18,655 nt of DNA from a virus: UHGV virus genome UHGV-2101173. One strand, written 5' to 3'. The notes beneath the pieces are model-generated. The model ran no database searches and had not been told where the DNA came from. It saw nothing but the letters and a program-made list of their open reading frames with translations. Numbering within the stretch: the first letter of the stretch is position 1; every line of letters begins with the position of its first letter. A program made the translations under genes and the position numbers. Below are positions 2,868-18,442 of the stretch, piece after piece.

Positions 2868-3415
2868 TTATTTAGCTAACTTTTTCCAGATCGCTGAAAC
2901 GTATTTGGCTTGGTGAATGGCATCATCAAGCGCGTTGTGGCGAGTTCCTTTGAATGGCATATCTCGCTTAGGGTCGAATCCTATTGCCTTCCCAAGTTCG
3001 ACGATTGTTCTTACGTCGCGGTCATTCCACCACTGCCACGGAACTGGCTGCCCTGTCAGCGAATAACTGTTGCGGAGAATAACGCAGTCAAATGATGCTC
3101 CATTCCCCCAAACCTGAACGAATTTGTGGTTAGCGTTCTTTATGATGAATTCAGATAACCATGAAAGAGCCGTTGAGAGCTCTTGAGTGTTGCTGGTTAG
3201 CGATTTTCTGGCTTCTTCACTCTGTTCCATCCACCATAAAATCGTTGAAGCGTCAGGACGCGCCCGATATCGCATTGATGACTCAAGCGAGATATTTACC
3301 GAGAACTCTTCTCCTGTTTCTCCGGTATTCGGGTCAAAGAATACCGCCCAATAGAAATAACTGGCGCGTATGGCCCGTTGCCCATTGTTTCAAGGTCAAC
3401 CATCAAGTGATTCAT
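2868..3415 (-). pseudogene. DEDDh-type 3'-5' exonuclease (DnaQ-like), interrupted by a -1 frameshift near 3340..3350
   Basis: Frame A (3415..3296) encodes MNHLMVDLETMGNGPYAPVISIG then stops; this carries the Exo I motif D-x-E. Track ORF 2868..3275 in another frame carries Exo II (GNGASFDCVIL) and Exo III (HNALDDAIH). That frame stays open upstream as ...AVFFDPNTGETGEEF... with no start codon. The two frames join at attgggcggtattc, where a GGG run sits. Confidence 0.6.
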
Positions 3416-3423
3416 GTAAGTCC

Positions 3424-4647: not shown

Positions 4648-4746
4648 AATTCACCTCAGAATGGACACGGCCCAAGGAAATAACGCTGATTTAATACTTC
4701 GACTCGGGACAAATTAAGGCATACCCGCATTCCTTCGCGGTCACCA

Positions 4747-4905
4747 TTATGGCGATACCAGAGAGCTTTCTGCGTGTACATGCGTCTCTGTAACTTGCTC
4801 TCCTTCACCGTGGTTGCAAGTGACATGAATATCTCCTTCGTTACCGATTAAATCTTTCATCTGACGAATGAATTCTTCGTCTGACCAGTTATCTGTAAAA
4901 CTCAT
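4747..4905 (-). CDS. Small acidic hypothetical protein (52 aa)
   Basis: Hand-translated, below track threshold: MSFTDNWSDEEFIRQMKDLIGNEGDIHVTCNHGEGEQVTETHVHAESSLVSP. Its ATG overlaps the kil stop (ATGA), suggesting translational coupling. Confidence 0.35.
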   Translation of the reverse strand: MSFTDNWSDEEFIRQMKDLIGNEGDIHVTCNHGEGEQVTETHVHAESSLVSP

Positions 4906-5054
4906 TTCCTGCGATACCACGGAAGGTTGATAGCTGATTTCATCGCTTTATTTGCTTCAAGCCACATTTTTGAATCACCAATAAAGCTGGCTATTACTGC
5001 TTTGTTTTGTGCTGCACGAAGCATCTGGTGATTGATGGCTATTTCATTGCGCAT
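4902..5054 (-). CDS. kil: Kil-like host cell-division inhibitor
   Basis: Hand-translated 50 aa: MRNEIAINHQMLRAAQNKAVIASFIGDSKMWLEANKAMKSAINLPWYRRK. The IASFIGDSKM segment resembles lambda Kil as I recall it. SD GAGG upstream; sits just downstream of cIII as in lambda. Confidence 0.55.
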   Translation of the reverse strand: MRNEIAINHQMLRAAQNKAVIASFIGDSKMWLEANKAMKSAINLPWYRRK

Positions 5055-5170
5055 AATAAGACCTCAACTCTTTTCCATCCGTCACGTAATTTACGGGTGA
5101 TTCGTTCAAGTAAAGATTCATTTAGTTGGAAGGCACCCATGCGAGCGCCTCCCGCGATTGCGTAAATCAT
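5039..5170 (-). CDS. cIII: CIII-like protease inhibitor
   Basis: Hand-translated 43 aa: MIYAIAGGARMGAFQLNESLLERITRKLRDGWKRVEVLLCAMK. The ESLLERITRKLRDGWKR core matches lambda CIII as recalled. SD AAGGAA upstream. Confidence 0.7.
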   Translation of the reverse strand: MIYAIAGGARMGAFQLNESLLERITRKLRDGWKRVEVLLCAMK

Positions 5171-5193
5171 GGGTGGTTCCTTATGTTGGTTTA

Positions 5194-6162
5194 TTAGTAG
5201 GTTATTTTTGTTGCGAATACTTCGCCTTTTACGATGGCTGTTATGATATTTTTAGCAACATCTTCTGATGCGCCAACCTTGATAATGTCAGCAAGTATTT
5301 TGTTATTTACTTCTTTCCGGTGAGCTTTATCCTTTGCTCTACGCTCTTCTTCGTCCTTGATTCTTTTTTCTTCTGCTATTCTGGCTTGCTCTTTTGCTTC
5401 AGCCTCGCGCCGGATTCGTTCAGCCTCCTCCTGTGCTTTTCGGCGTTCTGCTTCAATTGCCGCCTGCTTTTCTCTTTCAGCTCGTTCTGCTGCCTCTTTT
5501 GCTTCGCGCTGTGCTCGTTGCTCGGCTTCAATGCGTTCACGCTCTGCACGTTCCGCTGCGGCCTTAGCTTCTGCTTCTCGCCTTGCTGCTGCTTCAATTT
5601 CGGCTTTTGCCTTTGCTTCGGCTTCTGCTCTGGCTTTCTCTTCAGCTTCTCTTTTTAAGCGTTCTTCATGCTCTCGCTTTTCCTGCTCCGCTTTGAGTCT
5701 TGCCTCTTCTCTTTGGCGGTCAAATTCGCGATCCATCAAAATCGCTATTTCATGGTCAGACTCAATTTGCTTTGCGAGAGCTTCAGCTGCTGCCTTAGCT
5801 TCTTCTTCGGCTTTAATCCGTGCCTGTTCCTCCTCATAATCAGTAAGAGGCTGGCGCGCCTTGGCTTTCAGTTCATCAAGGCGATCGCGCACTGTCTTGC
5901 GGTTAGCATCAATTAGCTTTGGAATTTCCTTCAGTTCAGCAACAAGGTCTTTGCCAAGACCATCGAGATATGTTTTCGTCTGCGCAACTTTATACGCCAG
6001 AGAAGCGATCTCCTTTCTGCCCTTTGCCGTTGTGATATCAGGCACAAAGGACATAACTTCACGTTCAACCTTTTGGAGAATTTCTTCAATCTGGTCGGCA
6101 GACTGAAATACAGTCATCGCATTTGCTTTTTCAATAACAACTAAATCTGTTACTTCACTCAT
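5194..6162 (-). CDS. Coiled-coil protein with a long Glu/Ala/Lys/Arg-rich helical tract (TolA domain II-like)
   Basis: ORF track 5194..6258; preferred start is ATG at 6162 preceded by SD GGAGGA. About 190 residues of EAK/ERA-type repeats flanked by short globular ends. The underlying DNA is repetitive. Confidence 0.65.
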   Translation of the reverse strand: MSEVTDLVVIEKANAMTVFQSADQIEEILQKVEREVMSFVPDITTAKGRKEIASLAYKVAQTKTYLDGLGKDLVAELKEIPKLIDANRKTVRDRLDELKAKARQPLTDYEEEQARIKAEEEAKAAAEALAKQIESDHEIAILMDREFDRQREEARLKAEQEKREHEERLKREAEEKARAEAEAKAKAEIEAAARREAEAKAAAERAERERIEAEQRAQREAKEAAERAEREKQAAIEAERRKAQEEAERIRREAEAKEQARIAEEKRIKDEEERRAKDKAHRKEVNNKILADIIKVGASEDVAKNIITAIVKGEVFATKITY

Positions 6163-6174
6163 ATATCCTCCATC

Positions 6175-6201
6175 AAAAAAAATCGCCCTCACACTGGAGG
6201 G
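6175..6201 (-). terminator. Weak intrinsic terminator-like element upstream of the coiled-coil gene
   Basis: 5-bp GC-rich stem (ccctc/gaggg, 6186..6201) followed on the minus strand by a U8 tract (plus A-run 6175..6182). Stem is short. Confidence 0.3.
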
Positions 6202-6453
6202 AAAAGAAGATTTCCAATAATCAGAACAAGTCGGCTCCTGTTTAGTTACGAGCGACATTGCTCACATAGCAGACTCGTAAATCTGCTATAGGCGCTTATT
6301 CGCATCGCATGACAACATCAAATTTTTCGAGATTACTTTGTCGCAACAATCCTTTTTCTACGCGGTCAGCTTTTCTATAATTATCAAATTAGAAATGTTT
6401 AATTACTTCTTTCGTTTCTCGCTCTATAACTTCAACAATGTATTTCTTATTCA

Positions 6454-6732
6454 TCATTCTTCCCCCAGAGCCTTGCTGATGGCTGCCTTGGCTCGTTTGT
6501 ATTCGGTTAACTCTCTGCACCCTTCGTCATGCTCGTAAATGAAGACAAGCTCTTGCAGTGCTTCAAGCAAATCAGGAGCTGCTGCTATCAGTAGCGCATC
6601 CTCCCTTTCATTTCTTGTTGCTGCTTCAATGTATGTGTCACCAATCGTCACACCATGGAACGTAGTCATCATCTCGTTGACGTTTCTAACCGTGTACTTC
6701 CATTTACCAGGCGTACCCTTAAACTCTTTCAT
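6454..6732 (-). CDS. Hypothetical protein (~92 aa)
   Basis: ORF track 6454..6738 (GTG); ATG at 6732 preceded by GAGGTG. Contains ...EDALLIAAAPDLLEALQELV..., a motif I recall from small prophage proteins. Confidence 0.5.
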   Translation of the reverse strand: MKEFKGTPGKWKYTVRNVNEMMTTFHGVTIGDTYIEAATRNEREDALLIAAAPDLLEALQELVFIYEHDEGCRELTEYKRAKAAISKALGEE

Positions 6733-6750
6733 ATCCACCTCTGTTGTTTA

Positions 6751-6780
6751 TGCCAAAAATAAAGGCCGACTATGCGGCCT
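6751..6780 (-). terminator. Intrinsic terminator downstream of the membrane-protein gene
   Basis: 6-bp GC stem aggccg/cggcct (6763..6780) with a 6-nt loop, followed on the minus strand by a T-rich run (plus 6751..6762 tgccaaaaataa). Confidence 0.45.
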
Positions 6781-6784
6781 GAAA

Positions 6785-7096
6785 TTACTTAACCAATGAT
6801 GCCGCATATTCAATTAGGAATAACTTAGGTGCAAGCCAAATCTTCAACCATTCGAAATTGAAGGCAATAATTAAAACACCCATAATTGAGCCAAATATAG
6901 GAACAAATACAGTGCATATATCGTAATAAACCGAAGATATAAAATGTTCATCATTTGGACGTCCATCGAAAGACGTCCATCTCTCGCCATTATTTCTTGC
7001 CGTTCTTGCAAAACTAGGAAGTTTAATTGCTGCAATTAAAAGCAACAATCCAGCCACTTGGAAAAGTGCGCTATGGACAAAACTCCATATTAGCAA
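6785..7096 (-). CDS. Small membrane protein, possible moron or superinfection-exclusion candidate; start codon unresolved
   Basis: ORF track; the track start at 7096 is a TTG. Hydrophobic stretches (FQVAGLLLLIAAIKL; VFVPIFGSIMGVLIIAF). Visibly AT-rich compared with neighbours. Followed by its own terminator. Confidence 0.45.
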   Translation of the reverse strand: MLIWSFVHSALFQVAGLLLLIAAIKLPSFARTARNNGERWTSFDGRPNDEHFISSVYYDICTVFVPIFGSIMGVLIIAFNFEWLKIWLAPKLFLIEYAASLVK

Positions 7097-7215
7097 CTGA
7101 TGAACAACATCAGGAATCTGTGCCTGGCTAAATGAAACAGCCGCGTCTATTCCATTGCTGGCTTTTTGCAGTAGTTCTACGAGAATCTTGTTTGCTTGTT
7201 CTTCTACATCTCACC

Positions 7216-7551
7216 TCAAATAAGTGGTTTGCTGCCTAATTTCATTTTTTGGCGACCAACACAAGTCACCCCCATTTCACTGCGTGGCTTGCGGTAGTAA
7301 ATACGGTTCTGTTTACGCTCGACTTCTTCTGCCTTCTTGCAGCGAAGGCTTCCGAGTGATGCTGCTTTTTCAGAAAGGCTTAAACGCTTTCTTGGGGCTT
7401 CCTGAACAGGTTCCTCACTGTCTGTGCCGAAGATCGAATCGATGATGTTGCATATAGCATCACGCTCGATAGCCAGCTTTCTGCGCCGCTCATGACGGCG
7501 AGTTTTGGCATTTCCTGCAAATGTTGATTTCCCGTACACGATTACCGTCAT
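7216..7551 (-). CDS. N: N-type transcription antiterminator
   Basis: ORF track 7216..7635 (GTG); preferred start ATG at 7551 with SD GAGGA. Arginine-rich motif GNAKTRRHERRRKLAIER near the N-terminus (P22 gene 24 type as recalled). C-terminus ...YYRKPRSEMGVTCVGRQKMKLGSKPLI resembles the lambda N C-terminus. Confidence 0.8.
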   Translation of the reverse strand: MTVIVYGKSTFAGNAKTRRHERRRKLAIERDAICNIIDSIFGTDSEEPVQEAPRKRLSLSEKAASLGSLRCKKAEEVERKQNRIYYRKPRSEMGVTCVGRQKMKLGSKPLI

Positions 7552-7670
7552 GATGTTTTCCTCATGTGAAATGGCTTTGGTGGTGATGCGCCAGATGCTG
7601 ATCTTCTGGTTGCTGTCGTTGCAGCTGCAATTCACATCACCGCCAAACCCATCTCGTTTGGTATCTGTTT

Positions 7671-7705
7671 GCGCTTTGTCAGCGCCCCATCGAAGTTAAA
7701 GAGCC
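7671..7705 (-). promoter_or_regulatory. nutL site (boxA + boxB)
   Basis: On the minus strand: boxA-like GCTCTTTAAC (plus 7695..7704), 9-nt spacer, boxB hairpin GCGCTGACAAAGCGC (plus 7671..7685), located between pL and N. Confidence 0.7.
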
Positions 7706-7743
7706 TGCCAATCTGTTCCGTTTGGCGTCCTGCTGATGGCTAA

Positions 7744-7772
7744 ATAGTACGATGTGTACTTTATTGAGTCAA
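7744..7772 (-). promoter_or_regulatory. pL promoter
   Basis: Minus-strand -35 TTGACT (plus 7767..7772), 17-nt spacer, -10 TACTAT (plus 7744..7749); overlapped by operator OL1. Confidence 0.55.
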
Positions 7773-7817
7773 TACAAAATGTTCTAAATGCGGTTAGTTT
7801 TTTATAACACTTTGTAT
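7747..7817. promoter_or_regulatory. OL operator cluster (candidate repressor sites)
   Basis: 13-mer GTACGATGTGTAC (7747..7759) is near-identical to the reverse complement of a site in the OR region; weaker related sites at about 7772..7784 and 7805..7817. Confidence 0.45.
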
Positions 7818-7836
7818 TTTATTGATTTATATTTTG

Positions 7837-7867
7837 GAAAAAGAAAACCCGACGCTAAGGTCGGGTT
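7837..7867 (-). terminator. Intrinsic terminator downstream of the repressor gene
   Basis: 8-bp stem aacccgac/gtcgggtt (7846..7867), loop gctaag; followed on the minus strand by ttctttttcc. Confidence 0.6.
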
Positions 7868-7897
7868 ATTGTTGTGTGTTTTAGAGTGGTGAGGCTG

Positions 7898-8551
7898 TTA
7901 ACTAAATGTCTCTTCAGGCCACTGGCTGGCGATAACTTTCCCTACTACGGAACAGCTATCATTGCATGGGATCATTGGATATTGCGGGTTTAGTGGTTGT
8001 AGGAACACCTGACCGCTATCCCTGATCAGTTTCTTGAAGGTAAACTCGTCACCACCAAGTCTGGCTATGCAGAAATCACCTGGCTCAACAGCCTGCTCAG
8101 GGTCAACGAGAATTAACATCCCGTCAGGAAAGCTTGGCTTGGATCCTGTTGGTGCGGTCATGGAATTACCTTCAACTTCAAGCCAAAACGCACAATCACT
8201 GGCTTTTTTGGTTGTGCTGACCCATCTCTCCGCATCGCCTTTGGTAAAGGTTCTAAGCTCAGGCGAGAACATCCCGGCCTGAACATGAGAAAAAACAGGG
8301 TACTCATATTGTTTTTTAACGGGGGCAGATGAGTATTCGCCAACAGGTGAAAATGTACCGTCGTGGTTGAATGAGACGTTATCAATACCAAGGTATTTAA
8401 ACACCACACCAATCTCGTCAAGAGATGGATGACGAGATCCGCGCAACCAGTGACCAATTCCACCCTGCGTCATACCAAGCTCTTCAGCTAACTTCTCTTG
8501 AGTTATGCCGAGCTCTTTCATTCTGGATCTAGCCAGTTCATACCATTTCAT
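7898..8551 (-). CDS. cI: CI-type prophage repressor: lambda-cI-like S24 peptidase C-terminal domain, distinct N-terminal HTH domain
   Basis: ORF track 7898..8632. C-terminal portion ([39 protein letters not shown]...GNSMTAPTG...[25 protein letters not shown]...) is near-identical to lambda cI as recalled, including the AG autocleavage site and Ser/Lys dyad. N-terminal HTH ([20 protein letters not shown]) differs from lambda. Start ambiguous (ATG at 8551 or 8557). Confidence 0.85.
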
Positions 8552-8613
8552 TTTCATACCCTTATTATTACGCTCTGTACTAAAACCATCCATGCACAAG
8601 ATGTATTTTTTGT

Positions 8614-8642
8614 TTGCATTCCAAAAGTACATATCGTATTAT
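8614..8642 (+). promoter_or_regulatory. pR promoter with overlapping OR1 operator
   Basis: -35 TTGCAT (8614..8619), 17-nt spacer, -10 TATTAT (8637..8642); operator-like 13-mer GTACATATCGTAT (8627..8639) overlaps the spacer and -10. Confidence 0.5.
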
Positions 8643-8668
8643 TGTTTCATGGTTACTATGGAGGGCAT

Positions 8669-8884
8669 ATGAGCAACCTACGAAAATATCGAGAGTCACT
8701 GAATATCTCTCAAACAACACTTGCTAAGGCGGTTGGATGCACACAGGGAGCTATCGGACATTGGGAATCTGGTCGTCGCTTCCCAGACCTTAAAACATGC
8801 CGTGCTCTTGTTGCGTGCCTAAACAAGTTAGGCGCAAAAGTCAGTCTTGATGACGTGTTCCCACCGGAACACAAAGCCGCTTAA
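8669..8884 (+). CDS. cro: Cro-like HTH repressor (71 aa)
   Basis: ATG at 8669 preceded by SD GGAGGG; HTH ISQTTLAKAVGCTQGAIGHWESG. The track ORF 8498..8884 extends upstream through the operator region, so the internal start is preferred. Divergent from cI across pRM/pR. Confidence 0.8.
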   Translation: MSNLRKYRESLNISQTTLAKAVGCTQGAIGHWESGRRFPDLKTCRALVACLNKLGAKVSLDDVFPPEHKAA

Positions 8885-8894
8885 TAAGCGGATC

Positions 8895-8929
8895 CGCTCT
8901 TTATCAATCTGCACCGCCGACAACGCGGT
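8895..8929 (+). promoter_or_regulatory. nutR site (boxA + boxB)
   Basis: boxA CGCTCTTTA (8895..8903), 9-nt spacer, boxB hairpin ACCGC-CGACAAC-GCGGT (8913..8929), immediately downstream of cro. Confidence 0.7.
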
Positions 8930-8993
8930 AACTAATTAATCACTCATCGAAAGATGAGTATTAGTGATTATTTACCTATGGAAATAGTAAGAA

Positions 8994-9290
8994 ATGGAAC
9001 AAACAAGTTACAGCAAACTATCACAGCGCGACGTTGATCGCGCTGAAACAGATTTACTCATCAACCTGTCAACGCTTACACAGCGCGGTCTGGCAAAGAT
9101 GATTGGCTGTCATGAATCGAAGATAAGCAGAACGGACTGGAGATTTATTGCTTCGGTCTTGTGTGCTTTCGGAATGGCATCAGACATCAGTCCGATTAGC
9201 AGGGCTTTTAAGTATGCGCTTGATGGAATCACAAAGAAAAAATCCCCGGTGGCCGCCGGGGACTCTAAGCAAATTGATATGCAATTCTGA
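8994..9290 (+). CDS. cII: CII-like transcriptional activator
   Basis: ORF track; position after cro/nutR; C-terminus ...ITKKKSPVAAGDSKQIDMQF parallels lambda CII ...TNKKRPAATERSEQIQMEF as recalled. Confidence 0.75.
   Translation: MEQTSYSKLSQRDVDRAETDLLINLSTLTQRGLAKMIGCHESKISRTDWRFIASVLCAFGMASDISPISRAFKYALDGITKKKSPVAAGDSKQIDMQF
9003..9016 (-). promoter_or_regulatory. Candidate CII-binding repeat (pRE -35 region)
   Basis: Minus-strand TTGC-N6-TTGT (reverse complement of plus acaagttacagcaa), overlapping the first codons of cII as in lambda pRE. Confidence 0.3.
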
Positions 9291-9311
9291 GGGAATTACT
9301 GGATCAATCCA
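9237..9311 (-). ncRNA. oop: OOP-like antisense RNA with pO promoter and intrinsic terminator
   Basis: Minus-strand terminator inside the cII 3' end: stem ccccgg/ccgggg (plus 9244..9261) followed by U6 (plus A-run 9237..9242). Candidate pO on the minus strand: -35 TTGAGT (plus 9343..9348), 17-nt spacer, -10 CATAAT (plus 9320..9325). The predicted 5' sequence TTGATCCAGTAAT resembles the lambda OOP 5' end as recalled. Confidence 0.6.
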
Positions 9312-9322
9312 CAGGAGTCATT

Positions 9323-10168
9323 ATGACAAATACAGCAAAAATACTCAACTTCGGCAGAGGTAACTTTGCCGAACAGGAGCTAAGAGTGGCTGATATCGAT
9401 GATGGTTACACCAGATTCGCTAACGAGCTGCTGGAAGCTATCGCAAGTGCCGATTTAACCGCTCGCCAGTTGAAAGTTATGCTGGCCTACGTCCGGAAAA
9501 CATATGGATTCAATAAGAAAACAGATCGAATAGCCGATGAGCAAATTGCTCAGTTAACAGGACTGTCAAGGCAGAATGTTAACAAGGCTAAAAAAGAACT
9601 GATTTCAATGAATTGCCTGTTTATGGATGGAAATAAAATCGGTGTAAACAGGGAGGTATCTGCGTGGCAATTCAGCAAGTGTCTCCAAGTTAGCAACTTT
9701 GTCTCGAAGTTAGAGACAAAAAATGTCTCCAAATTAGAGACACTCAATGTCTCGAAGTTAGAGACACACAAAAGACATTCTTTAAAGACAAAAGAAAATA
9801 TTAATAAACCCCCTATATCCCCCAAAAAAATTTCTCAGAAGTTCGACCCGCTAGAAACAGAGTTGCCTGATTGGTTATCGGCAGAAACATGGTTGTCGTG
9901 GGTTACCTATCGCAAGGAGATAGGTAAGTCGATCAAGTCTAAGCAAAGCGTCACTCAGGCTATCAACGTTCTAAGCAGAAGTCTGGAGAAGGGATATACA
10001 CCTGAAGAAATTATAAACCAGAGCATCGCCAGTGGTTGGCAGGGGATTTTTGAACCCAAGACTCCAAAGGGGAAATCTCAACCGAGGCCGCAGCAGCGAG
10101 CTATGCAGGAAAACTTTGCCGCCAAAGATTACGGGCAAACTGAAATGCCTTCATGGGCGCAGGAGTGA
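9323..10168 (+). CDS. O: Replication initiator O (lambda O-like N-terminal domain)
   Basis: ORF track; N-terminus MTNTAKILNFGRGNFAEQELRVADIDDGY... closely matches lambda O as recalled; contains the ori iterons and AT-rich segment. Confidence 0.9.
   Translation: MTNTAKILNFGRGNFAEQELRVADIDDGYTRFANELLEAIASADLTARQLKVMLAYVRKTYGFNKKTDRIADEQIAQLTGLSRQNVNKAKKELISMNCLFMDGNKIGVNREVSAWQFSKCLQVSNFVSKLETKNVSKLETLNVSKLETHKRHSLKTKENINKPPISPKKISQKFDPLETELPDWLSAETWLSWVTYRKEIGKSIKSKQSVTQAINVLSRSLEKGYTPEEIINQSIASGWQGIFEPKTPKGKSQPRPQQRAMQENFAAKDYGQTEMPSWAQE
9681..9766. repeat. Origin iterons (four ~18-bp palindromic repeats at ~24-bp spacing) inside O
   Basis: Repeats of GTCTC(C/G)AA(G/A)TTAGAGACA starting at 9681 (degenerate), 9701, 9725, 9749; followed by an A/T-rich segment at 9767..9830. 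Confidence 0.8.
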
Positions 10169-10170
10169 AC

Positions 10171-11016
10171 ATGACGCTGGATGAAAAGATCTCCCAACTG
10201 GAGAAAAAACTTGCAGAATTGAGTTCTCCGCCAATTGCTATCGAGCATACAGCTGTAGAAATTGGCACTGGCATCTGTGAAAAACATGGTGAGTTTGAGC
10301 AGCGTAACCGTTACTCGACTGGGCCAATTAAGTTTGCCTCAAGACCTAGCGAATGCCCGGAATGCATGAGAGATGAGCTTATTCGGCTACAGGCAGAGAA
10401 GATTAAAATCGACGAAGAATCACGTAAGCGCAATGTCGAGTTTCTGTTGAATAATCTTGATATTCCTGAACGATTCAAGGGTTGCACACTACAGAACTAC
10501 GAGCCAGTCAACGACGATGCAAAGAGAGTGCTCAGGGTGTGTCAGGCATACGCCAGCAAATGGCCTGAGAGGTTACAGAAAGGCGGTGGGCTGGTTATGT
10601 GCGGAAAGCCTGGTACTGGAAAGAATCATCTTGCACTGGCTATCGCCCGGCACGCAATTACGGAACATCAAAGCTCAGCTATTTTCACAACGGCGCTGAA
10701 AATTGCCAGAGAATATAAATCAACATGGTCTAAAAACTCCACCCGCACAGAGGATGAAGTGATCCGACAGTTCACTAAACCTGACCTGCTAATTATCGAT
10801 GAGGTTGGTGTGCAGTTTGGAAGCGAGGCGGAAAAGATGATCATGTTCGAAATCATCAACACCCGCTACGAGTGCATGAAGCCAACAATCCTGATTAGCA
10901 ACCAGAGCAAAGATGAACTGTCTGCATTCATTGGTGAGCGTGTTATTGACAGGATGAATGATGGCGGCGGGTGCACTCTTGCGTTTACATGGGATAGTTA
11001 CAGGAGCAGATCGTGA
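10171..11016 (+). CDS. DnaC-type helicase loader (AAA+ ATPase) in the position of lambda P
   Basis: ORF track 10153..11016; preferred start ATG at 10171 after SD AGGAG. Walker A GKPGTGKN, Walker B LLIIDEVG; N-terminal Cys/His cluster (CEKHGEF...CPEC). Confidence 0.85.
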   Translation: MTLDEKISQLEKKLAELSSPPIAIEHTAVEIGTGICEKHGEFEQRNRYSTGPIKFASRPSECPECMRDELIRLQAEKIKIDEESRKRNVEFLLNNLDIPERFKGCTLQNYEPVNDDAKRVLRVCQAYASKWPERLQKGGGLVMCGKPGTGKNHLALAIARHAITEHQSSAIFTTALKIAREYKSTWSKNSTRTEDEVIRQFTKPDLLIIDEVGVQFGSEAEKMIMFEIINTRYECMKPTILISNQSKDELSAFIGERVIDRMNDGGGCTLAFTWDSYRSRS

Positions 11017-11303
11017 CTGGAAAAGAAATCATCCTGGAATATCTGAAAACTCATGAACAATTCTCCCCACATGAATTAGCACTGATCACCGGAATACCAA
11101 ATAACAGAATCGCTCAAGCAGCAAGGCATATGGTGAAACAAGGGAATTTGAGTGTTGTTGAGCGTAAGTGGAAGACGGTTATTTATGCAAAACGCAAAGT
11201 GAAGAAGGAGCCAATTAAAAGAAATCCAGATGGTACGGGGTGGGGATGTGCAAATCCAATGACGGCGTTTATTAATAGGGCGCTTATGGAGGTAAGGCAA
11301 TGA
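11013..11303 (+). CDS. ren: Ren-like protein
   Basis: ORF track (GTG start overlapping the loader stop). N-terminus MTGKEIILEYLKTHEQFSPHELALITG resembles lambda Ren as recalled. Confidence 0.65.
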   Translation: MTGKEIILEYLKTHEQFSPHELALITGIPNNRIAQAARHMVKQGNLSVVERKWKTVIYAKRKVKKEPIKRNPDGTGWGCANPMTAFINRALMEVRQ

Positions 11304-11328
11304 CCATCTACATCACTGAGCTAATAAC

Positions 11329-11360
11329 AGGCCTGCTGGTAATCGCAGGCCTTTTTATTT
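11329..11360 (+). terminator. tR2-like intrinsic terminator
   Basis: 8-bp stem aggcctgc/gcaggcct (11329..11352) followed by TTTTATTT; located between ren and ninB. Confidence 0.75.
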
Positions 11361-11376
11361 GGGGGAGAGGGAAGTC

Positions 11377-11817
11377 ATGAAAAAACTAACCTTTGAAATT
11401 CGATCTCCAGCACATCAGCAAAACGCTATTCACGCGGTACAGCAAATTCTTCCAGACCCAACCAAACCAATCGTAGTAACCATTCAGGAACGCAACCGCA
11501 GCTTAGACCAAAATCGGAAGCTTTGGGCTTGCCTTGGTGACGTCTCTCGTCAGGTTGAATGGCATGGTCGCTGGCTGGATGCAGAAAGCTGGAAGTGTGT
11601 GTTTACCGCAGCATTAAAGCAGCAGGACGTTGTTCCTAACCTTGCCGGGAATGGCTTTGTGGTAATAGGCCAGTCAACCAGCAGGATGCGTGTAAGCGAA
11701 TTTGCGGAGCTATTAGAGCTTATACAGGCATTCGGTACAGAGCGTGGCGTTAAGTGGTCAGACGAAGCGCGACTGGCTCTCGAATGGAAAGCGCGATGGG
11801 GAGATCGGGCTGCATGA
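11377..11817 (+). CDS. ninB: NinB recombination protein
   Basis: ORF track 11359..11817 (TTG); preferred start ATG at 11377 after SD GAGAGGGAAG. MKKLTFEIRSPAHQQNAIHAVQQIL... matches lambda NinB as recalled. Confidence 0.85.
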   Translation: MKKLTFEIRSPAHQQNAIHAVQQILPDPTKPIVVTIQERNRSLDQNRKLWACLGDVSRQVEWHGRWLDAESWKCVFTAALKQQDVVPNLAGNGFVVIGQSTSRMRVSEFAELLELIQAFGTERGVKWSDEARLALEWKARWGDRAA

Positions 11818-12341
11818 CTATCAAATCAAATACGCCAGCACACGACAAGGACTGCTGGCAAACGCCGCTTTGGCTTTTTGATGCACTGGATATTGAGTTT
11901 GGATTCTGGCTGGATTCGGCAGCGAGCGACAAAAATGCTCTGTGTGCTCACTGGCTAACTGAGGCCGACGACGCGCTCAATTCTGAGTGGGTAAGCCACG
12001 GTGCAATCTGGAATAACCCACCGTACAGCAATATCAGGCCGTGGGTGGAAAAAGCTGCTGAGCAGTGCATACAACAGCGACAGACGGTAGTTATGCTTGT
12101 GCCAGAGGATATGTCAGTCGGATGGTTCAGCAAGGCTCTGGAGAGTGTCGACGAAGTTCGCATTATCACTGATGGACGGATTAATTTTATCGAACCATCG
12201 ACAGGGCTGGAGAAGAAGGGAAACAGCAAAGGCTCCATGCTGCTGATTTGGCGACCGTTCATCAGTCCTCGACGGATGTTTACTACCGTATCCAAAGCGG
12301 CATTGATGGCGATCGGGCAGGGTGTCAGGAGGGCGGCATGA
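11814..12341 (+). CDS. Phage DNA N6-adenine methyltransferase (Dam-type)
   Basis: 3' part of track ORF 11754..12341; ATG at 11814 overlaps the ninB stop (ATGA). Contains the NPPY catalytic motif (...[15 protein letters not shown]...). Confidence 0.8.
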
Positions 12342-12514
12342 GGCGACAGCGACGAAGTATCACCGACATCATCTGCGAAAACTGCAAATACCTTCCAACG
12401 AAACGCTCCAGAAATAAACGCAAGCCAATCCCAAAAGAATCTGACGTAAAAACCTTCAACTACACGGCTCACCTGTGGGATATCCGGTGGCTAAGACATC
12501 GTGCGAGGAAATGA
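12338..12514 (+). CDS. ninE: NinE
   Basis: 3' part of track ORF 12248..12514; ATG at 12338 overlaps the methyltransferase stop. [58 protein letters not shown] matches lambda NinE as recalled. Confidence 0.8.
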
Positions 12515-12915
12515 CAATGGATTATTCACAGTTAAGTGATTTTGAAATTAACGTGGCGGTATTCGAATCCATTCATAACGGATCACCGGATTACAAAGAA
12601 GGTGAGAATGGCGATATGGTGTTTGTCTCATTTGAGGGAGACATTGTAAACGGAGACGCAGTTGAAGTAGAAGTTGAGCGCGGATCCTTTAACCCATGCG
12701 TAAACCCAGCAGACGCATGGCCGATTATCACTGAAAACAAAATTAGCACCATGTGGATGACAGCGGAAAAAGAATGGTGCGCATGGTCAGGAGGTGATTT
12801 AGAGGAAGGTTGTTGGGAATGGGAAAATATTCCTGACTACTGCTTCTGCGGTGAATCGCCTCTCCGCGCAGCCATGATTGTATTTCTCATGATGCAGGAC
12901 GCCAATAATGCTTAG
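12511..12915 (+). CDS. Hypothetical nin-region protein (possibly DUF2591-like)
   Basis: 3' part of track ORF 12475..12915; ATG at 12511 overlaps the ninE stop. Acidic, Trp/Cys-containing (...[35 protein letters not shown]...). Family assignment tentative. Confidence 0.5.
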
Positions 12916-13084
12916 CCCATCCCAATCCCTTCAATACCAGAAAGAAAGCGTCGAGCGAGCTTTAACGTGCGCTAACTGCGGTCAGAAGCTGCATGTGCTG
13001 GAAGTTCACATGTGTGAGCACTGCTGCGCAGAACTGATGAGCGATCCGAATAGCTCAATGTACGAGGAAGAAGACGATGAATGA
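12908..13084 (+). CDS. ninF: NinF
   Basis: Hand-translated 58 aa, below track threshold: [58 protein letters not shown]; matches lambda NinF as recalled. Confidence 0.75.
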   Translation: MLSPSQSLQYQKESVERALTCANCGQKLHVLEVHMCEHCCAELMSDPNSSMYEEEDDE

Positions 13085-13799
13085 GTTAATAAATGGCAAT
13101 GCCATCAAAATGACAAGCATTGAAATCGCTGAGTTGGTGGGTAAGCGTCATGACAATGTGAAACGTACCATCGAAACGCTGGCTAAAAATGGTGTTATCC
13201 GGCTTCCTCAAATTGAGGTTTCCGAAAGAATCAATAACTTAGGGTTCAATGTTCAGTACGAGCATTACGTCTTCGAGGGCGAACAAGGTAAGCGAGACAG
13301 TATTGTCGTTGTAGCCCAGTTGTCGCCGGAATTCACGGCTCGCCTTGTTGACCGTTGGCGAGAGCTTGAAGAAGCTGCGGTTAATATCCCAAAAACGCTA
13401 CCAGAAGCGTTGCGCCTTGCTGCTGACCTTGCTGAGCAGAAAATGCAACTGGAAAACCAGCTCGCAATTGCCGCACCTAAAGTTGAGTTTGCCGATCGCG
13501 TTGGCGAGGCCAGCGGAATTTTGATTGGAAACTTTGCAAAGGTTGTTGGAATTGGTCCAAACAAACTGTTTGCGTGGATGCGCGATCACAAAATCCTTAT
13601 TGCTTCAGGTTCCCGGCGCAATGTGCCAATGCAGGAATATATGGATCGCGGCTATTTCACAGTGAAAGAAACAGCGTTCAACACAAATCACGGAATACAG
13701 ATATCGTTCACCACAAAAATCACCGGGCGTGGTCAACAGTGGCTGACCAGAAGGCTGCTCTATAGCGGAATGCTGAAAGTAACAGGGGAGGCTGCTTAA
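13077..13799 (+). CDS. Antirepressor-like protein (N-terminal Rha/AntA-like domain + C-terminal KilAC/ANT domain)
   Basis: ORF track; N-terminus ...MTSIEIAELVGKRHDNVKRTIETL...; C-terminus ...FAKVVGIGPNKLFAWMRDHKILIASGSRRNVPMQEYMDRGYFTVKE typical of phage ANT domains. Confidence 0.7.
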   Translation: MNELINGNAIKMTSIEIAELVGKRHDNVKRTIETLAKNGVIRLPQIEVSERINNLGFNVQYEHYVFEGEQGKRDSIVVVAQLSPEFTARLVDRWRELEEAAVNIPKTLPEALRLAADLAEQKMQLENQLAIAAPKVEFADRVGEASGILIGNFAKVVGIGPNKLFAWMRDHKILIASGSRRNVPMQEYMDRGYFTVKETAFNTNHGIQISFTTKITGRGQQWLTRRLLYSGMLKVTGEAA

Positions 13800-14089
13800 T
13801 GGCTAAACTACGCAAAGAAGCGCGCGGCAGAGAATGCCAGGTACGTATTTACGGCGTATGCAATGGCAACCCTGAAACTACAGTTCTGGCACATTACCGG
13901 ATGGCTGGAATTTGCGGAACGGGAATGAAGCCTGACGACCTGATCGGAGCATGGGCTTGTAGCGCGTGTCACGATGAAATCGACCGACGCACCCATAAAC
14001 TCGACAACAAAGACGCCAGACTTTACCACCTGGAAGGCGTGATCAGGACGCAGGCGATACTGCTGAAGGAGGGGAAGATTAAGCCATGA
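13799..14089 (+). CDS. YbcO-like DUF1364 protein (putative zinc-binding nuclease)
   Basis: ORF track; 96 aa, Cys/His-rich (C..C...CGTGM...CSACHDE). Size and position upstream of rusA match DLP12 YbcO as recalled. Confidence 0.6.
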   Translation: MAKLRKEARGRECQVRIYGVCNGNPETTVLAHYRMAGICGTGMKPDDLIGAWACSACHDEIDRRTHKLDNKDARLYHLEGVIRTQAILLKEGKIKP

Positions 14090-14448
14090 ACGAATATCAG
14101 TTTGTGCTTCCATACCCGCCGTCGGTGAACACCTACTGGCGAAGACGGGGAAGCCAATACTACATCAGCGATAAAGGCCAGAAATACCGAAAAGACGTTC
14201 AGCAAATCATCCGCCAACTTAAGTTAGACATTTTCACCAAATCACGACTCCGCATCAAAGTCATCGCAGACGTTCCAGACTCCCGCCGCCGCGACCTCGA
14301 CAACATCCTGAAAGGTTTACTCGACTCCCTTATCCACGCCGGATTTGCGGAAGACGACGAGCAATTCGATGACATTCGCGTAATTCGTGGTGTGAAAGTA
14401 CCAGGCGGACGGCTTGGAATAAAAATCACCGAACTGGAGAACGCATGA
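14086..14448 (+). CDS. rusA: RusA-type Holliday junction resolvase
   Basis: ORF track; MNEYQFVLPYPPSVNTYWRRRG... and catalytic-region motif RRRDLDNILKGLLDSL characteristic of RusA. Confidence 0.85.
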   Translation: MNEYQFVLPYPPSVNTYWRRRGSQYYISDKGQKYRKDVQQIIRQLKLDIFTKSRLRIKVIADVPDSRRRDLDNILKGLLDSLIHAGFAEDDEQFDDIRVIRGVKVPGGRLGIKITELENA

Positions 14449-14633
14449 ACGCCACAATTCAAACGATACCAGAGCTTCTTATCCAGACACGAGGCAATCA
14501 GACCGAAGTGGCGAGGATGCTTTCCTGTGCAAGAGGAACAGTGCTCAAGTACAACCGAGACAGCAAAGGCGAGCGTCACGTAATAGTTAACGGCGTCCTG
14601 ATGGTCAAACAAGGCAAGAGGGGAAGACGATGA
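14445..14633 (+). CDS. ninH: NinH-like protein
   Basis: ORF track; ...TIPELLIQTRGNQTEVARMLSCARGTVLKYNRD... parallels lambda NinH as recalled; immediately upstream of Q. Confidence 0.7.
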   Translation: MNATIQTIPELLIQTRGNQTEVARMLSCARGTVLKYNRDSKGERHVIVNGVLMVKQGKRGRR

Positions 14634-15253
14634 GACTCGAAAGCGTAGCTAAATTTCATTCGCCAAAAAGCCCGATGATGAGCGACTCACCACGGGCTAC
14701 GGCTTCTGACTCTCTTTCCGGTACTGATGTGATGGCTGCTATGGGGATGGCGCAATCACAAGCCGGATTCGGAATGGCTGCATTCTGTGGTAAGCACGAA
14801 CTCAGCCAGAACGACAAACAAAAGGCTATCAACTATCTGATGCAATTTGCACACAAGGTATCGGGGAAATACCGTGGCGTGGCAAAGCTTGAAGGAAATA
14901 CTAAGGCAAAGGTACTGCAAGTGCTCGCAACATTCGCTTATGCGGATTATTGCCGTAGTGCCGCGACGCCGGGCGCAAGATGCAGAGATTGCCACGGTAC
15001 AGGCCGTGCGGTTGATATAGCCAAAACGGAGCAGTGGGGGAGAGTTGTTGAGAAAGAGTGCGGAAGATGCAAAGGTGTCGGCTATTCAAGAATGCCAGCA
15101 AGCGCCGCATATCGCGCTGTAACGATGCTAATCCCAAACCTTACTCAACCCACCTGGTCACGCACTGTTAAGCCGCTGTATGACGCTCTGGTGGTGCAAT
15201 GCCACAAAGAAGAGTCAATTGCAGACAACATTTTGAATGCGGTCACACGTTAG
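14630..15253 (+). CDS. Q: Late-gene antiterminator Q (lambda Q type)
   Basis: ORF track; 207 aa beginning MRLESVAKFHSPKSPMMSDSPRATASD... with zinc-binding CRDCHGTGRA...CGRCKGVG; near-identical to lambda Q as recalled. Confidence 0.9.
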   Translation: MRLESVAKFHSPKSPMMSDSPRATASDSLSGTDVMAAMGMAQSQAGFGMAAFCGKHELSQNDKQKAINYLMQFAHKVSGKYRGVAKLEGNTKAKVLQVLATFAYADYCRSAATPGARCRDCHGTGRAVDIAKTEQWGRVVEKECGRCKGVGYSRMPASAAYRAVTMLIPNLTQPTWSRTVKPLYDALVVQCHKEESIADNILNAVTR

Positions 15254-15295
15254 CGGCATGATTGCCACGGATGGCAACATATTAACGACATGATA

Positions 15296-15324
15296 TTGAC
15301 TTTTTGAATAAAGTTGGGTAAATT
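15296..15324 (+). promoter_or_regulatory. pR' late promoter (with adjacent qut region)
   Basis: -35 TTGACT (15296..15301), 17-nt spacer, -10 TAAATT (15319..15324), followed by tgactcAACGAT as in lambda pR'/qut. Confidence 0.75.
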
Positions 15325-15359
15325 TGACTCAACGATGGATAAATGCACTCGTTAAATAA

Positions 15360-15388
15360 AGCCCTGAGTTAATAGCTCGGGGCTTTTT
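15360..15388 (+). terminator. tR'-like intrinsic terminator about 57 nt downstream of the pR' start
   Basis: 9-bp stem (one G-U) agccctgag/ctcggggct with 7-nt loop, followed by TTTTT (15384..15388). Confidence 0.7.
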
Positions 15389-16363
15389 GCGTTTGCACAA
15401 CAGGTAAGAGCATTCTCCCTTATGGGGCTTGGCTTAAATGCACCGAGTGCTCTTATCGTTGTGGCAGCACAACGATAGTTTTCGTCAGAGTTGGCGACTT
15501 TGCGGGTTTTTAGAAACTGACCACAAAGATAAATGCAAACGATGATTTGATGTTGATGGCGGCCTAAGAAACCAAAGTCACGGGGTCTTCCGATTCCCCG
15601 CTACCAAATTCGGCGCAGTGGCCCGCTGTGATTAATAATGGGCACCCAATAATGAGAGCGTTGGACAGTGGCGATGAGATTTCGCAACCCAGGAGCCAAT
15701 AGATCGGGGATAGTGCGCATAATACCGATTGAGGTGAGTGCTGGAATAAGCATCGGGAGTCATGACCCAACATGATGCGGGAAAGCCAGCCACCGAGAGA
15801 CCCGGCAGGGTAAACCGGCCTTCCGCTTGGTTATCAAGCAATAATAGCGCTCTCATTCGTGGGTAACAACGGGCATGTCGCCTTAGTAAATCCCTCAAGG
15901 GTGCGACGCATAGACCGGTACTAGCGTCGCCGTTAGCTCCACGAAACGGAGCGCACAACAGGTAAGAGTATTTGTAGAGTTCGACTCTCTACCGTGGGAT
16001 TTTTTCCGCGATGCGAGCCATAAATGCTCTTTCCGTTGTGCTGAATTAAGCGAATGCCGGAAGCAGAACCGGATCACCAAATGCGTACAGGCGTCATCGC
16101 CGCCCAGCAACAGCACAACCCAAACTTAGCCGTAGCCACTGGCTATCCTGAACTCATCAGTGATAGTTATGCTGCGGCCTTCTACGCATGACCTTCGTGA
16201 AAGCGGGTGGCAAGAGGCTGCGCTAACAACCTCCTGCCGTTTTGCCCGTGCATATCGGTCACGAACAAATCTGATTACTAAACACAGTAGCCTGGATTTG
16301 TTCTATCAGTAATCGACCTTATTCCTAATTAAATAGAGCAAATCCCCTTATTGGGGGTAAGAC

Positions 16364-16687
16364 ATGAAGATGCCAGAAAAACATGACCTGTTAGCCGCCA
16401 TTCTCGCGGCAAAGGAACAAGGCATCGGGGCAATCCTTGCGTTTGCAATGGCGTACCTTCGCGGCAGATATAATGGCGGTGCGTTTACAAAAACAGTAAT
16501 CGACGCAACGATGTGCGCCATTATCGCCTGGTTCATTCGTGACCTTCTCGACTTAGCCGGACTAAGTAGCAATCTCGCTTATATAACGAGCGTGTTCATC
16601 GGCTACATCGGTACTGACTCGATTGGTTCGCTTATCAAACGCTTCGCTGCTAAAAAAGCCGGAGTAGAAGATGGTGGAAATCAATAA
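16364..16687 (+). CDS. S: Holin S (dual-start S107/S105 type)
   Basis: ORF track; [39 protein letters not shown]... near-identical to lambda S as recalled, with the MKM dual-start motif. Confidence 0.9.
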
Positions 16688-17147
16688 TCAACGTAAGGCG
16701 TTCCTCGATATGCTGGCGTGGTCAGAGGGAACTGATAACGGACGACAGAAAACCAGAAATCATGGTTATGACGTCATTGTAGGTGGAGAGCTATTCACTG
16801 ATTACTCCGATCACCCTCGTAAACTTGTCACGCTAAACCCAAAACTCAAATCAACAGCAGCCGGTCGCTATCAGCTTCTTTCCCGTTGGTGGGATTCCTA
16901 TCGTAAGCAGCTTGGCCTGAAAGACTTCTCTCCGAAAAGCCAAGACGCTGTGGCATTGCAGCAGATTAAAGAGCGTGGCGCTTTACCGATGATTGATCGC
17001 GGTGATATCCGTCAGGCTATCGATCGTTGCAGCAATATCTGGGCTTCACTGCCGGGCGCTGGTTATGGTCAGTTCGAGCATAAGGCTGACAACCTGATTG
17101 CAAAATTCAAAGAAGCTGGCGGAACGGTCAGAGAGATTGAGGTATGA
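16671..17147 (+). CDS. R: Endolysin R (lambda-type lytic transglycosylase)
   Basis: ORF track; [49 protein letters not shown]... near-identical to lambda R as recalled. Confidence 0.9.
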
Positions 17148-17581
17148 GCAGAGTCACCGCGATTATTTCCGCTCTGGTTATCTGCATCATCGTCTGTCTG
17201 TCATGGGCTGTTAATCATTACCGTGATAACGCCATCGCCTACAAAGACCAGCGCGATAAAGCCACGTACATCATCGCTGACATGCAGAAGCGTCAACGTG
17301 ATGTAGCTGAACTCGATGCCAGATATACAAAGGAACTTGCTGATGCTAACGCGACTATCGAAAGTCTCCGTGCTGATGTTTCTGCTGGGCGTAAGCGCCT
17401 GCAAGTCGCCGCCACCTGTGCAAAGTCAACGACCGGAGCCAGCAGCATGGGCGATGGAGAAAGCCCAAGACTTACAGCAGATGCTGAACTCAATTATTAC
17501 CGTCTCCGAAGTGGGATCGACAGGATAACCGCGCAGGTTAACTACCTGCAGGAGTACATCAGGACGCAATGCCTTCGATGA
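17144..17581 (+). CDS. Rz: Rz i-spanin
   Basis: ORF track; N-terminal transmembrane segment [18 protein letters not shown] followed by a coiled-coil periplasmic domain; overlaps the R stop. Confidence 0.85.
17343..17528 (+). CDS. Rz1: Rz1 o-spanin (lipoprotein) embedded in Rz in the +1 frame
   Basis: 3' part of track ORF 17316..17528; from ATG 17343: [20 protein letters not shown] (signal plus lipobox Cys) followed by a Pro-rich mature part ([16 protein letters not shown]...). Confidence 0.7.
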
Positions 17582-17755
17582 TAGCGATAATTTTACTCAT
17601 CATCCTTCACATCTGGCTCTGTAGACAGGGTGGTGATCACTTCTGGAGTGAATCCAGATTAAACATCTCATTGCTGATGCTTGATATTGAGCATCTGGCG
17701 CGCGGTAAGGGGCTGCGTTGAGATAAGAGCCAGTTCATTACAAATACCAGGATTT

Positions 17756-17780
17756 AGCCTCGCATTCGCGGGGCTTTTTA
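17756..17780 (+). terminator. Intrinsic terminator-like hairpin downstream of Rz
   Basis: 8-bp stem (one G-U) agcctcgc/gcggggct with loop attc, followed by TTTTTA. Confidence 0.5.
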
Positions 17781-17923
17781 TATCTGAATTTCACAGCGCA
17801 TCTCACGCGCATATTAACGAGAGCCTTTCAGTAAGCGAGCCTGAGAAATGCCGTTATAGGTGGCGACCTCTCTCGGGCGGCTTTTCTGTGAGACAGGCTC
17901 ACTTTCTAAAAGGTAAAGACGCT

Positions 17924-18442
17924 ATGAATCATCAATTGGCTAATCTCGATTTCCGGGACATGGTGGTTGTTTCTGGTGATCGCGTGATCACAACCTCCCG
18001 CAAGGTAGCAGCTTACTTCGACAAGCAGCATCACCACATCATTCAGAAAATCGAAAAGCTAGACTGTTCGGATGAATTTCTAACCAGCAACTTTTCGCGG
18101 GTTACCTATGAACACAAGGGTAATCAGTATGTTGAATATGAAATTTCCAAAGACGGCGCTATGTACATCATCATGTCGTTTACCGGCAAAAAAGCTGCCG
18201 CCATCAAAGAGGCGTTTATCAAAGCATTTAATTGGATGCGTGACAGGCTGATGGAGATGGCTCACTCATACCAAAGAGAGCACAACGAGTTAATGCTGGA
18301 GTTCATGAAGGAAAAGGATGTTGCCAGTATGTCAGGACGCTTGCTGAACCGCTGGGGCAGGATCAAAAAACCGCAACTCATAGCAAGAATCAAAATGCTT
18401 GAGCAGCAGGCGCAAATATCGATCCCCGGACTGCCAAAGTGA
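17924..18442 (+). CDS. Rha-family phage regulatory protein
   Basis: 3' part of track ORF 17681..18442; ATG at 17924. ...DMVVVSGDRVITTSRKVAAYFDKQHHHIIQKIEKL...YIIMSFTGKKAAAIKEAFIKAFNWM... fits the Phage_pRha pattern as recalled. Confidence 0.7.
   Translation: MNHQLANLDFRDMVVVSGDRVITTSRKVAAYFDKQHHHIIQKIEKLDCSDEFLTSNFSRVTYEHKGNQYVEYEISKDGAMYIIMSFTGKKAAAIKEAFIKAFNWMRDRLMEMAHSYQREHNELMLEFMKEKDVASMSGRLLNRWGRIKKPQLIARIKMLEQQAQISIPGLPK

Follow-up and report, generated by a model that had tools for sequence, protein, structure and literature searches.

Where does a small hydrophobic protein begin when its reading frame, which opens directly behind the antitermination gene N, offers no usual start codon? 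This is the question raised by one locus in the window, i.e., the whole stretch of 18,655 nt analysed here (UHGV virus genome UHGV-2101173). On the minus strand a frame is open from TGA 7213..7211 to TAA 6787..6785, as read from the window sequence; the stop codon of N is TGA 7218..7216, and the TGA opening the hydrophobic frame lies only 2 nt further on. The 38 sense codons after this TGA, DVEEQANKILVELLQKASNGIDAAVSFSQAQIPDVVHQ, contain neither ATG nor GTG, and the earliest ATG, GTG or TTG in the open frame is TTG 7096..7094. A first-pass annotation had described this layout, and our reading agrees with it at every coordinate; it had also called the ORF AT-rich and furnished with its own terminator, which likewise holds, the G+C content of 6785-7096 being 36% vs 47% for the whole window and the terminator stem lying at 6780..6763. 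Hydrophobic codons may account for part of the AT bias in 6785-7096.

The features to which the text refers are as follows, all on the minus strand.

6785..7207, minus: frame of the Sf6 gene 34 / PHROG 3054 family, 140 codons plus TAA, otherwise intact, with GTA at the start position
7205..7207, minus: GTA where the family has its start codon; its A (7205) is private to the window's contig
7211..7217, minus: Shine-Dalgarno (SD) sequence GAGGTGA, overlapping the N stop TGA 7218..7216 and containing the in-frame TGA 7213..7211
7204..7209, minus: out-of-frame ATG-TAG start-stop, read from the sequence, on the same SD
7094..7096, minus: TTG, codon of the family's invariant Leu38 (L38 invariant in a 60-sequence alignment), with no SD upstream
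7097..7204, minus: codons 2-37, conserved N-terminal helical segment EEQANKILVELLQKASNGIDAAVSFSQAQIPDVVHQ, lost under a TTG start; helical in the AF2 model
7025..7081, minus: predicted transmembrane helix 1, residues 43-61; Kyte-Doolittle 19-mer mean 2.17, helix in the AF2 model
6863..6919, minus: predicted transmembrane helix 2, residues 97-115; Kyte-Doolittle 19-mer mean 2.46, AF2 helix 93-116
6788..6853, minus: conserved C-terminal helix EWLKIWLAPKLFLIEYAASLVK, majority identity 0.93 with many invariant columns
6948, minus: GGA>GAA (G87E) in the variable loop, second private base, G>A on the coding strand
6753..6780, minus: intrinsic terminator directly after the stop codon, stem AGGCCG/CGGCCT 6780..6763 followed by the T-tract TTATTTTT
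7216..7551, minus: antitermination gene N, the upstream cistron; Pfam PF25694 N_peptide, E 1.1e-25
7744..7772, minus: pL-like promoter TTGACT-17-TACTAT, from a consensus scan only; as expected of pL, it lies between N and the gene for the cI-type repressor

Of the window's 78 six-frame ORFs with 60 aa or more, 2 have a start-less upstream stretch of at least 38 open codons, 38 being the maximum, and the analytic probability of such a 38-codon stretch is about 0.016 at the local composition. The stretch is statistically unusual, which alone is not decisive; the decisive evidence is homology.

Operon context and family membership

The neighbours of the frame are genes for a cI-type repressor (HTH + S24), N (PF25694), cIII and Kil, and the locus is a standard lambdoid early-left operon. 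A simple scan for the sigma-70 consensus gave no promoter-like site on the minus strand between the pL-like promoter at 7772..7744 and the gene. Since the SD overlaps the stop codon of N, the gene should be co-transcribed with N and is probably also translationally coupled to it. Transcription past the gene's terminator presumably needs N-mediated antitermination, as in other lambdoid early-left operons. A search of Rfam placed no RNA family in the window.

The segment 7216..6740, which begins at the N stop and runs slightly beyond the terminator, is 97.7% identical to the gene 34 block of Shigella phage Sf6, and the window frame has 98% amino-acid identity with Sf6 gp34 (AAQ12224) over 140 aa. 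Further matches are ECRS218_0047 of phage CUS-3 and a RefSeq gene in E. coli 3CM. The proteins annotated in Sf6, CUS-3 and E. coli 3CM are all of 140 aa and start at the window equivalent of 7207, with ATG, ATG and GTG, respectively, and beyond the start codon they are 92-98% identical to the window frame. Sf6 gene 34 and its CUS-3 counterpart have the same SD and the same terminator as the window gene, the terminator hairpin recurring after Sf6 gene 34, and, as in the window, they belong to the early-left operon and precede the PHROG 1376 coiled-coil gene, cIII and kil. They differ from it in having ATG where the window has GTA and in following ral, whereas the window gene and that of E. coli 3CM directly follow N; in Sf6, too, the interval from ral to gene 34 contained no promoter-like site. 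In the closest E. coli prophages (L117, L118 and L119), other genes or none come after N.

Residues 1-140 of the Sf6 protein match positions 1-137 of the PHROG 3054 profile (E 1.8e-52), and relatives number 480 by phmmer and 1,550 by profile search. Two segments typical of the family are present and unchanged in the window frame: the N-terminal M-x-E-Q-A-N-K-I-L...F-S-Q-A-Q-I-P-D-V-V-H-Q-L-L-x-W and the C-terminal W-L-K-I-W-L-A-P-K-L-x-L-I-E-Y-A-A-S-L-V-K. Judged by sequence, the ORF is a member of the Sf6 gene 34 / PHROG 3054 family and appears as a defective allele of it. No match for the window protein was obtained from NCBIfam, and Pfam at E<=1 gave only a sub-threshold DUF1031 (E 0.03-0.06). 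The best-scoring entries listed among the 1,550 relatives are all called 'hypothetical', and our literature search retrieved no paper mentioning PHROG 3054, POG0622, Phi92_gp220 or ECRS218_0047, the hits to 'Sf6 gp34' being unrelated; the genome papers of phages epsilon34 and L state only that the function of most early-left genes is unknown.

Alignment of the homologues locates the N-terminus. All 119 aligned full-length homologues begin with Met at the window equivalent of 7207, 37 codons upstream of TTG. Majority identity among them is 0.92 for residues 1-38, 0.53 for transmembrane helix 1, 0.29 for the loop, 0.39 for transmembrane helix 2 and 0.93 for the C-terminal 22 residues, so that a start at TTG would delete one of the two most conserved segments. 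When 64 distinct coding sequences were compared over codons 2-39, variable sites numbered 6, 3 and 17 at codon positions 1, 2 and 3, respectively; 14 codons vary only synonymously and 6 change the amino acid. Such third-position-dominated variation is what purifying selection leaves in a translated sequence. The suspicion of the first-pass annotation that the true N-terminus lies upstream of TTG was right, and the case that it named against itself, homologues starting at the TTG equivalent with unconserved codons upstream, is clearly not what the alignment contains. The TTG at 7096 is, on this alignment, the codon of Leu38 and not a start site.

The start codon and its substitution

At the junction with the upstream sequence, Sf6 and CUS-3 read AAGGTGATAT-ATG-GAA-GAA; E. 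coli 3CM, which has the same N junction as the window, reads GAGGTGAGAT-GTG-GAA-GAA; and the window reads GAGGTGAGAT-GTA-GAA-GAA. Compared in this way, the missing start is a base substitution in the start codon. The earlier observation that ATG and GTG are absent upstream therefore stands, and what it had missed is the reason, namely that the family's ATG (GTG in a close relative) is GTA here. The step ATG>GTG is common to the window and one E. coli prophage (3CM), and the step GTG>GTA is private to the window's contig.

We surveyed this start in public collections, keeping the SD and the first 20 coding bases fixed and leaving the start codon free, which yielded 85 viral-contig loci and 20 metagenome loci; the codon tally adds three annotated loci and leaves out the window's own contig. 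In the resulting 109 independent copies the start codon is ATG 107 times, GTG once (E. coli 3CM), ACG once and GTA never. The sole GTA locus (IMGVR_UViG_3300029828_000288) is 100% identical to window positions 4712-17928 and is thus the window's own source contig. Probes of 31 nt across the codon in the same SD context, which seed only across the codon, were also run against 5,426 complete E. coli genomes: GTA was found in none, ATG in 23 and GTG in one, the latter two serving as positive controls. A scan of GTDB representative genomes for the start context found nothing. The GTA of the window is, accordingly, no conserved non-canonical start among these copies and genomes.

The SD before the codon is intact and strong. 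As (A/G)AGGTGA it is conserved in all family copies, the family's start codon lying 3 nt behind it, and in the window GAGGTGA (7211..7217) ends at this same distance from 7207, where GTA stands. The SD:anti-SD energy before 7207 is -6.9 kcal/mol, in the top 5% of the window background; before TTG 7096 it is +0.3 kcal/mol, i.e., no SD, and before the in-frame ATT, CTG and ATA codons upstream of TTG it is -0.7 to -2.5 kcal/mol. The near-cognate in-frame starts ATT 7186, CTG 7171, ATA 7150, ATT 7117 and ATA 7090 were examined, and none has a usable SD. A fusion with N by read-through or frameshifting is ruled out by the sequence: the -1 frame of N is closed by TGA 7213..7211, and in the N frame itself the gene's own TGA is followed by a TAG.

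These data suggest the following course. Ribosomes placed on the SD GAGGTGA would normally initiate at the ATG (or GTG) lying 3 nt beyond it; the substitution ATG>GTG, followed by the private GTG>GTA, would have removed this start, with no other in-frame start served by an SD. Because two of the three bases of GUA (positions 1 and 3) do not pair with the initiator anticodon and no such alternative start exists, the full-length protein would be made at most in trace amounts. The same two substitutions created an out-of-frame ATG (by ATG>GTG) and its TAG (by GTG>GTA) at 7209..7204, both on the retained SD, which would now serve this start-stop. Some protein could nevertheless arise from trace-level initiation at GUA, given the strong SD and a coupling to N that is possible.

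Readings of the GTA allele

We consider the GTA allele to be probably a recent natural start-loss allele, null or strongly reduced, of a dispensable accessory gene. The nearest intact allele differs at 4 nt, with two differences beyond the start codon, and when it is set against 25 intact 140-aa alleles, just two of the 423 nt are private to the window, the A at 7205 and the base at 6948 that gives G87E, each a G>A change as read on the coding strand. With so few private changes and an intact frame, the event should be recent or else an error. Null alleles of the same gene were found elsewhere too, three contigs having E11* and two further copies a frameshift, and the gene is missing from related prophages, from which it appears dispensable, at least in the prophage state. 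The contig carries a second lesion, a -1 frameshift in a 3'-5' exonuclease gene (homopolymer G4>G3 at about 3346). The allele thus resembles start-codon-loss alleles, or incipient pseudogenes, of prophages, which likewise have a point substitution in a conserved start, an intact frame and a second inactivating lesion; the only peculiarity of the window compared with these is the ATG-TAG mini-ORF on the retained SD. The anomaly is an ordinary point mutation (or an error), and no exotic start mechanism is needed for it. Gene callers meeting such an allele will skip the gene or report a truncated 103-aa protein from TTG, and the correct annotation is 'Sf6 gene 34 family, start codon lost'.

The alternative that we take most seriously, though we hold it clearly the less probable, is that the A at 7205 arose as an error of sequencing or assembly, and that the phage itself has GTG (or ATG) and an intact, expressed gene. 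GTA is a singleton from one metagenome-assembled contig, and the rest of the ORF is intact; the deletion that breaks the exonuclease gene is of a typical error type, and two homopolymer runs outside genes, at 5192 and 6175, also contain private indels. On the other hand, one coding frameshift in the 15.5 kb comparable with relatives does not make the contig a generally error-ridden one, and substitution errors in consensus sequence are rare. The second private G>A (G87E) fits a real lineage-specific mutation, natural null alleles of the same gene occur elsewhere, and the first step, ATG>GTG, is present also in an isolate genome (E. coli 3CM), so these points favour a natural allele. If GTA is taken as real, it might be proposed that initiation at GUA is functional, through the SD and coupling to N or through the ATG-TAG, and gives a down-tuned version of a potentially toxic membrane protein. 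The intact, strong SD, the otherwise undamaged frame and the two-step change ATG>GTG>GTA, each step lowering start strength, would agree with this, and many non-AUG codons give measurable initiation in E. coli (bioRxiv 10.1101/063800). In this survey of all 64 codons, however, codons outside AUG, GUG, UUG and four near-cognates initiate at 0.1-1% of AUG on a high-copy reporter, and a measured subset of codons at 0.01-0.2% on low-copy reporters; the overall range of 0.01-1% of AUG, depending on the assay, describes the codon class of GUA and not GUA itself (Hecht et al., bioRxiv 10.1101/063800). Together with the two anticodon mismatches, the absence of GTA from all other copies and E. coli genomes, which gives no sign of selection for it, and the out-of-frame ATG on the same SD, which should capture initiating ribosomes, this makes functional initiation at GUA a quite improbable reading. 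Least probable of all, to the point that we give it hardly any weight, is TTG 7096 as a functional start, giving a 103-aa protein without the N-terminal helix and possibly with a modified or antagonistic activity, like Esc from P22 sieB. It is the first canonical start in the open frame, and the annotation of P22 esc as an internal in-frame product of sieB is a precedent in the same genome neighbourhood; against it, the codon has no SD and is that of an invariant residue, truncation there removes a most conserved segment, none of the 119 homologues begins there, and exact look-up of the 103-aa product in a large protein collection returned no gene call.

Protein architecture and possible role

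Kyte-Doolittle hydropathy places two hydrophobic helices, residues 43-61 and 97-115, between the conserved ends, and the AF2 model of the protein is all-helical (pLDDT 75). The predicted architecture is that of an inner-membrane protein in which conserved helices at the N- and C-terminus flank a variable transmembrane hairpin of two helices; with two membrane spans, both conserved terminal helices would be on the same side of the membrane. A search of the model against BFVD matched only uncharacterised family members, and neither the model (all E>3) nor the sequence gave relatives in the PDB. Among E. coli and Salmonella phages there are at least three cassette forms, of 121, 140 and 149 aa, whose ends are near-identical at the protein level and whose middles are unrelated.

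Full-length members of PHROG 3054, with 27-40% identity and E 1e-35 to 1e-44, are found also in virulent phages: N4-like phages, rV5-like phages (about 146 kb), more than 60 Vibrio phages and Pseudomonas phages. In three neighbourhoods, one each from an N4-like, an rV5-like and a Vibrio phage, the neighbours are genes for a phage RNA polymerase, dUTPase, AAA ATPase, exonuclease and SSB. A gene of 330-385 aa follows in Shigella phage B2, Paula and Vibrio phage 1.194.O, and a conserved partner gene was considered and rejected: the three products are a collagen/YadA anchor, an AAA ATPase and a DUF2800 exonuclease, unrelated to one another and also to Sf6 gp33 / PHROG 1376. The family thus consists of small predicted membrane proteins, common and uncharacterised, that are encoded in early operons of Gammaproteobacteria phages, temperate as well as virulent, and whose ends are strongly conserved and whose middle can be exchanged.

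The first-pass annotation had pointed to superinfection-exclusion or moron functions at this position in lambda and P22, and a prophage-expressed gene of this type, analogous to sieB, must be weighed. The positional part of the statement is sound in that sieB immediately adjoins N in lambda (34482..35036) and the gene 24 antiterminator gene in P22 (29758..30336) and, like the window gene, encodes a membrane protein; the window gene is also AT-rich, is followed by a terminator of its own, and occurs in only some of the related phages. The analogy fails in that sieB lies on the strand opposite to N / gene 24, with a mapped promoter and RNA start in P22, whereas the window gene shares the pL strand with N, which it follows by 2 nt, and has no promoter-like site. 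The sequences are unrelated: the window protein has no Pfam match to SieB (PF14163), and hhalign gave probabilities of 0.2% against lambda SieB and 0.15% against P22 SieB. SieB, of 184-192 aa, moreover differs from the window protein in having its hydrophobic segments towards the N-terminus and a soluble part at the C-terminus. With respect to a moron, the terminator and the atypical composition are there and the presence at this site is patchy (the three closest prophages lack the gene, and in Sf6 and CUS-3 it comes after ral), and a promoter of its own is missing. Membership in a defence system was rejected, PADLOC giving no match for the gene. Gene 17 of P22, which allows growth on Fels-2 lysogens, is a positional equivalent, being a small early-left gene that lies between ral and c3 and is followed by a terminator; its product differs in being acidic and soluble, without hydrophobic segments, and homology with it was rejected by hhalign (0.1%). 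Full-length members in virulent phages, which do not lysogenise, and the genes in their neighbourhoods make a role specific to lysogeny unlikely, and to our knowledge no exclusion phenotype is known for the family. We therefore find the proposed exclusion or moron function unsupported and regard it as improbable.

Our best guess for the role is an activity at the inner membrane, early in the lytic cycle, exerted through the two conserved terminal helices. T4 Imm-type proteins offer an analogy, with no claim of homology: they too are small early proteins of virulent phages with two predicted membrane helices. As a speculation, which taken as a whole we consider rather unlikely, PHROG 3054 might be an early lytic-cycle membrane effector common to temperate lambdoid/P22-like phages and virulent N4-like, rV5-like, Vibrio and Pseudomonas phages, in which the terminal helices on one membrane face would hold the activity and the exchangeable transmembrane-hairpin cassette would set the specificity (e.g., injection blocking or counter-defence). 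The family is already catalogued and is a reasonable target for functional work; were the effector speculation true, the GTA allele would amount to a natural knockout of the effector or to a form of it deliberately tuned down.

Lesions in the pL operon and defective alleles elsewhere

The start-codon changes of the window's family gene (Sf6 gene 34/PHROG 3054 family) have left behind a minimal ATG-TAG "start-stop" ORF, which was read from the sequence and lies 1 nt past the strong Shine-Dalgarno (SD) sequence. The only ORF in the window besides the family gene with 38 start-less codons upstream is that of the 3'-5' exonuclease.

7204..7209, minus strand: minimal ATG-TAG ORF
2868..3416, minus strand: 3'-5' exonuclease gene, with a lesion at about 3346-3349

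The intact exonuclease has 182 aa (e.g., WP_069924752), and the window's gene has a 1-nt deletion within a G4 run (ATTGGGGCGG to ATTGGGCGG) that shifts the reading frame beyond about codon 22. This frameshift is a second inactivating lesion within the same pL operon as the family gene. Defective alleles of the family gene are carried also by independent contigs from public collections.

L055, L077 and L092: E11* allele
L071 and L033: frameshifted gene
L017: ACG start

The 90-aa protein P0037 represents the fallback of a gene caller faced with a defective allele of this kind.

Possible mosaic structure of the family gene

Among the family copies in loci L004-L108, which include 149-aa, 140-aa and 121-aa forms, the protein ends (the first 38 and last 21 residues) are near-identical, and between them lie three unrelated middle cassettes, each made up of a transmembrane hairpin and a loop whose length ranges from 8 to about 48 residues. 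Such an arrangement suggests that the middle cassettes have been exchanged through recombination within the conserved flanks. Five loci (L024, L056, L075, L094 and L104) carry a fusion of the family gene's SD sequence, ATG and first 12 codons (MEEQANKILVEL) to the 3' end of an antitermination gene N, and the next frame at the fusion reads ...YRKPRSEMGVTCVGRQKMKLGSKPLI followed by a stop. We interpret these fusions as recombination scars, and the 5' end of the family gene apparently serves as a joint in the mosaic. Two of the five, L075 and L104, have a complete 149-aa family copy 393 nt downstream.

Occurrence in virulent phages

Full-length PHROG 3054 members are present in virulent N4-like, rV5-like (about 146 kb), Vibrio and Pseudomonas phages, and in the three examples checked the neighbours are phage RNA polymerase, dUTPase, AAA ATPase, exonuclease or SSB genes; the family is therefore not restricted to temperate phages.

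L113, 4001-4447: Shigella phage B2 gp83
L114, 3983-4420: phage Paula 0098
L115, 4001-4423: Vibrio phage 1.194.O gene 64

Neighbouring features of the window

5194..6258, minus strand: coiled-coil ORF of 354 aa, matching PHROG 1376

Because the PHROG 1376 match begins only at residue 33 of this ORF and its relatives have 322 aa, the true start is probably the Met at about 6162; an extra A, private to the window, is found just upstream of this putative start, in the A-run at 6175. Upstream of N, GCGCTGACAAAGCGC (7671..7685, minus strand) resembles a P22-type boxB, and the N peptide GNAKTRRHERRRKLAIER (residues about 11-29) resembles a P22-type arginine-rich motif.
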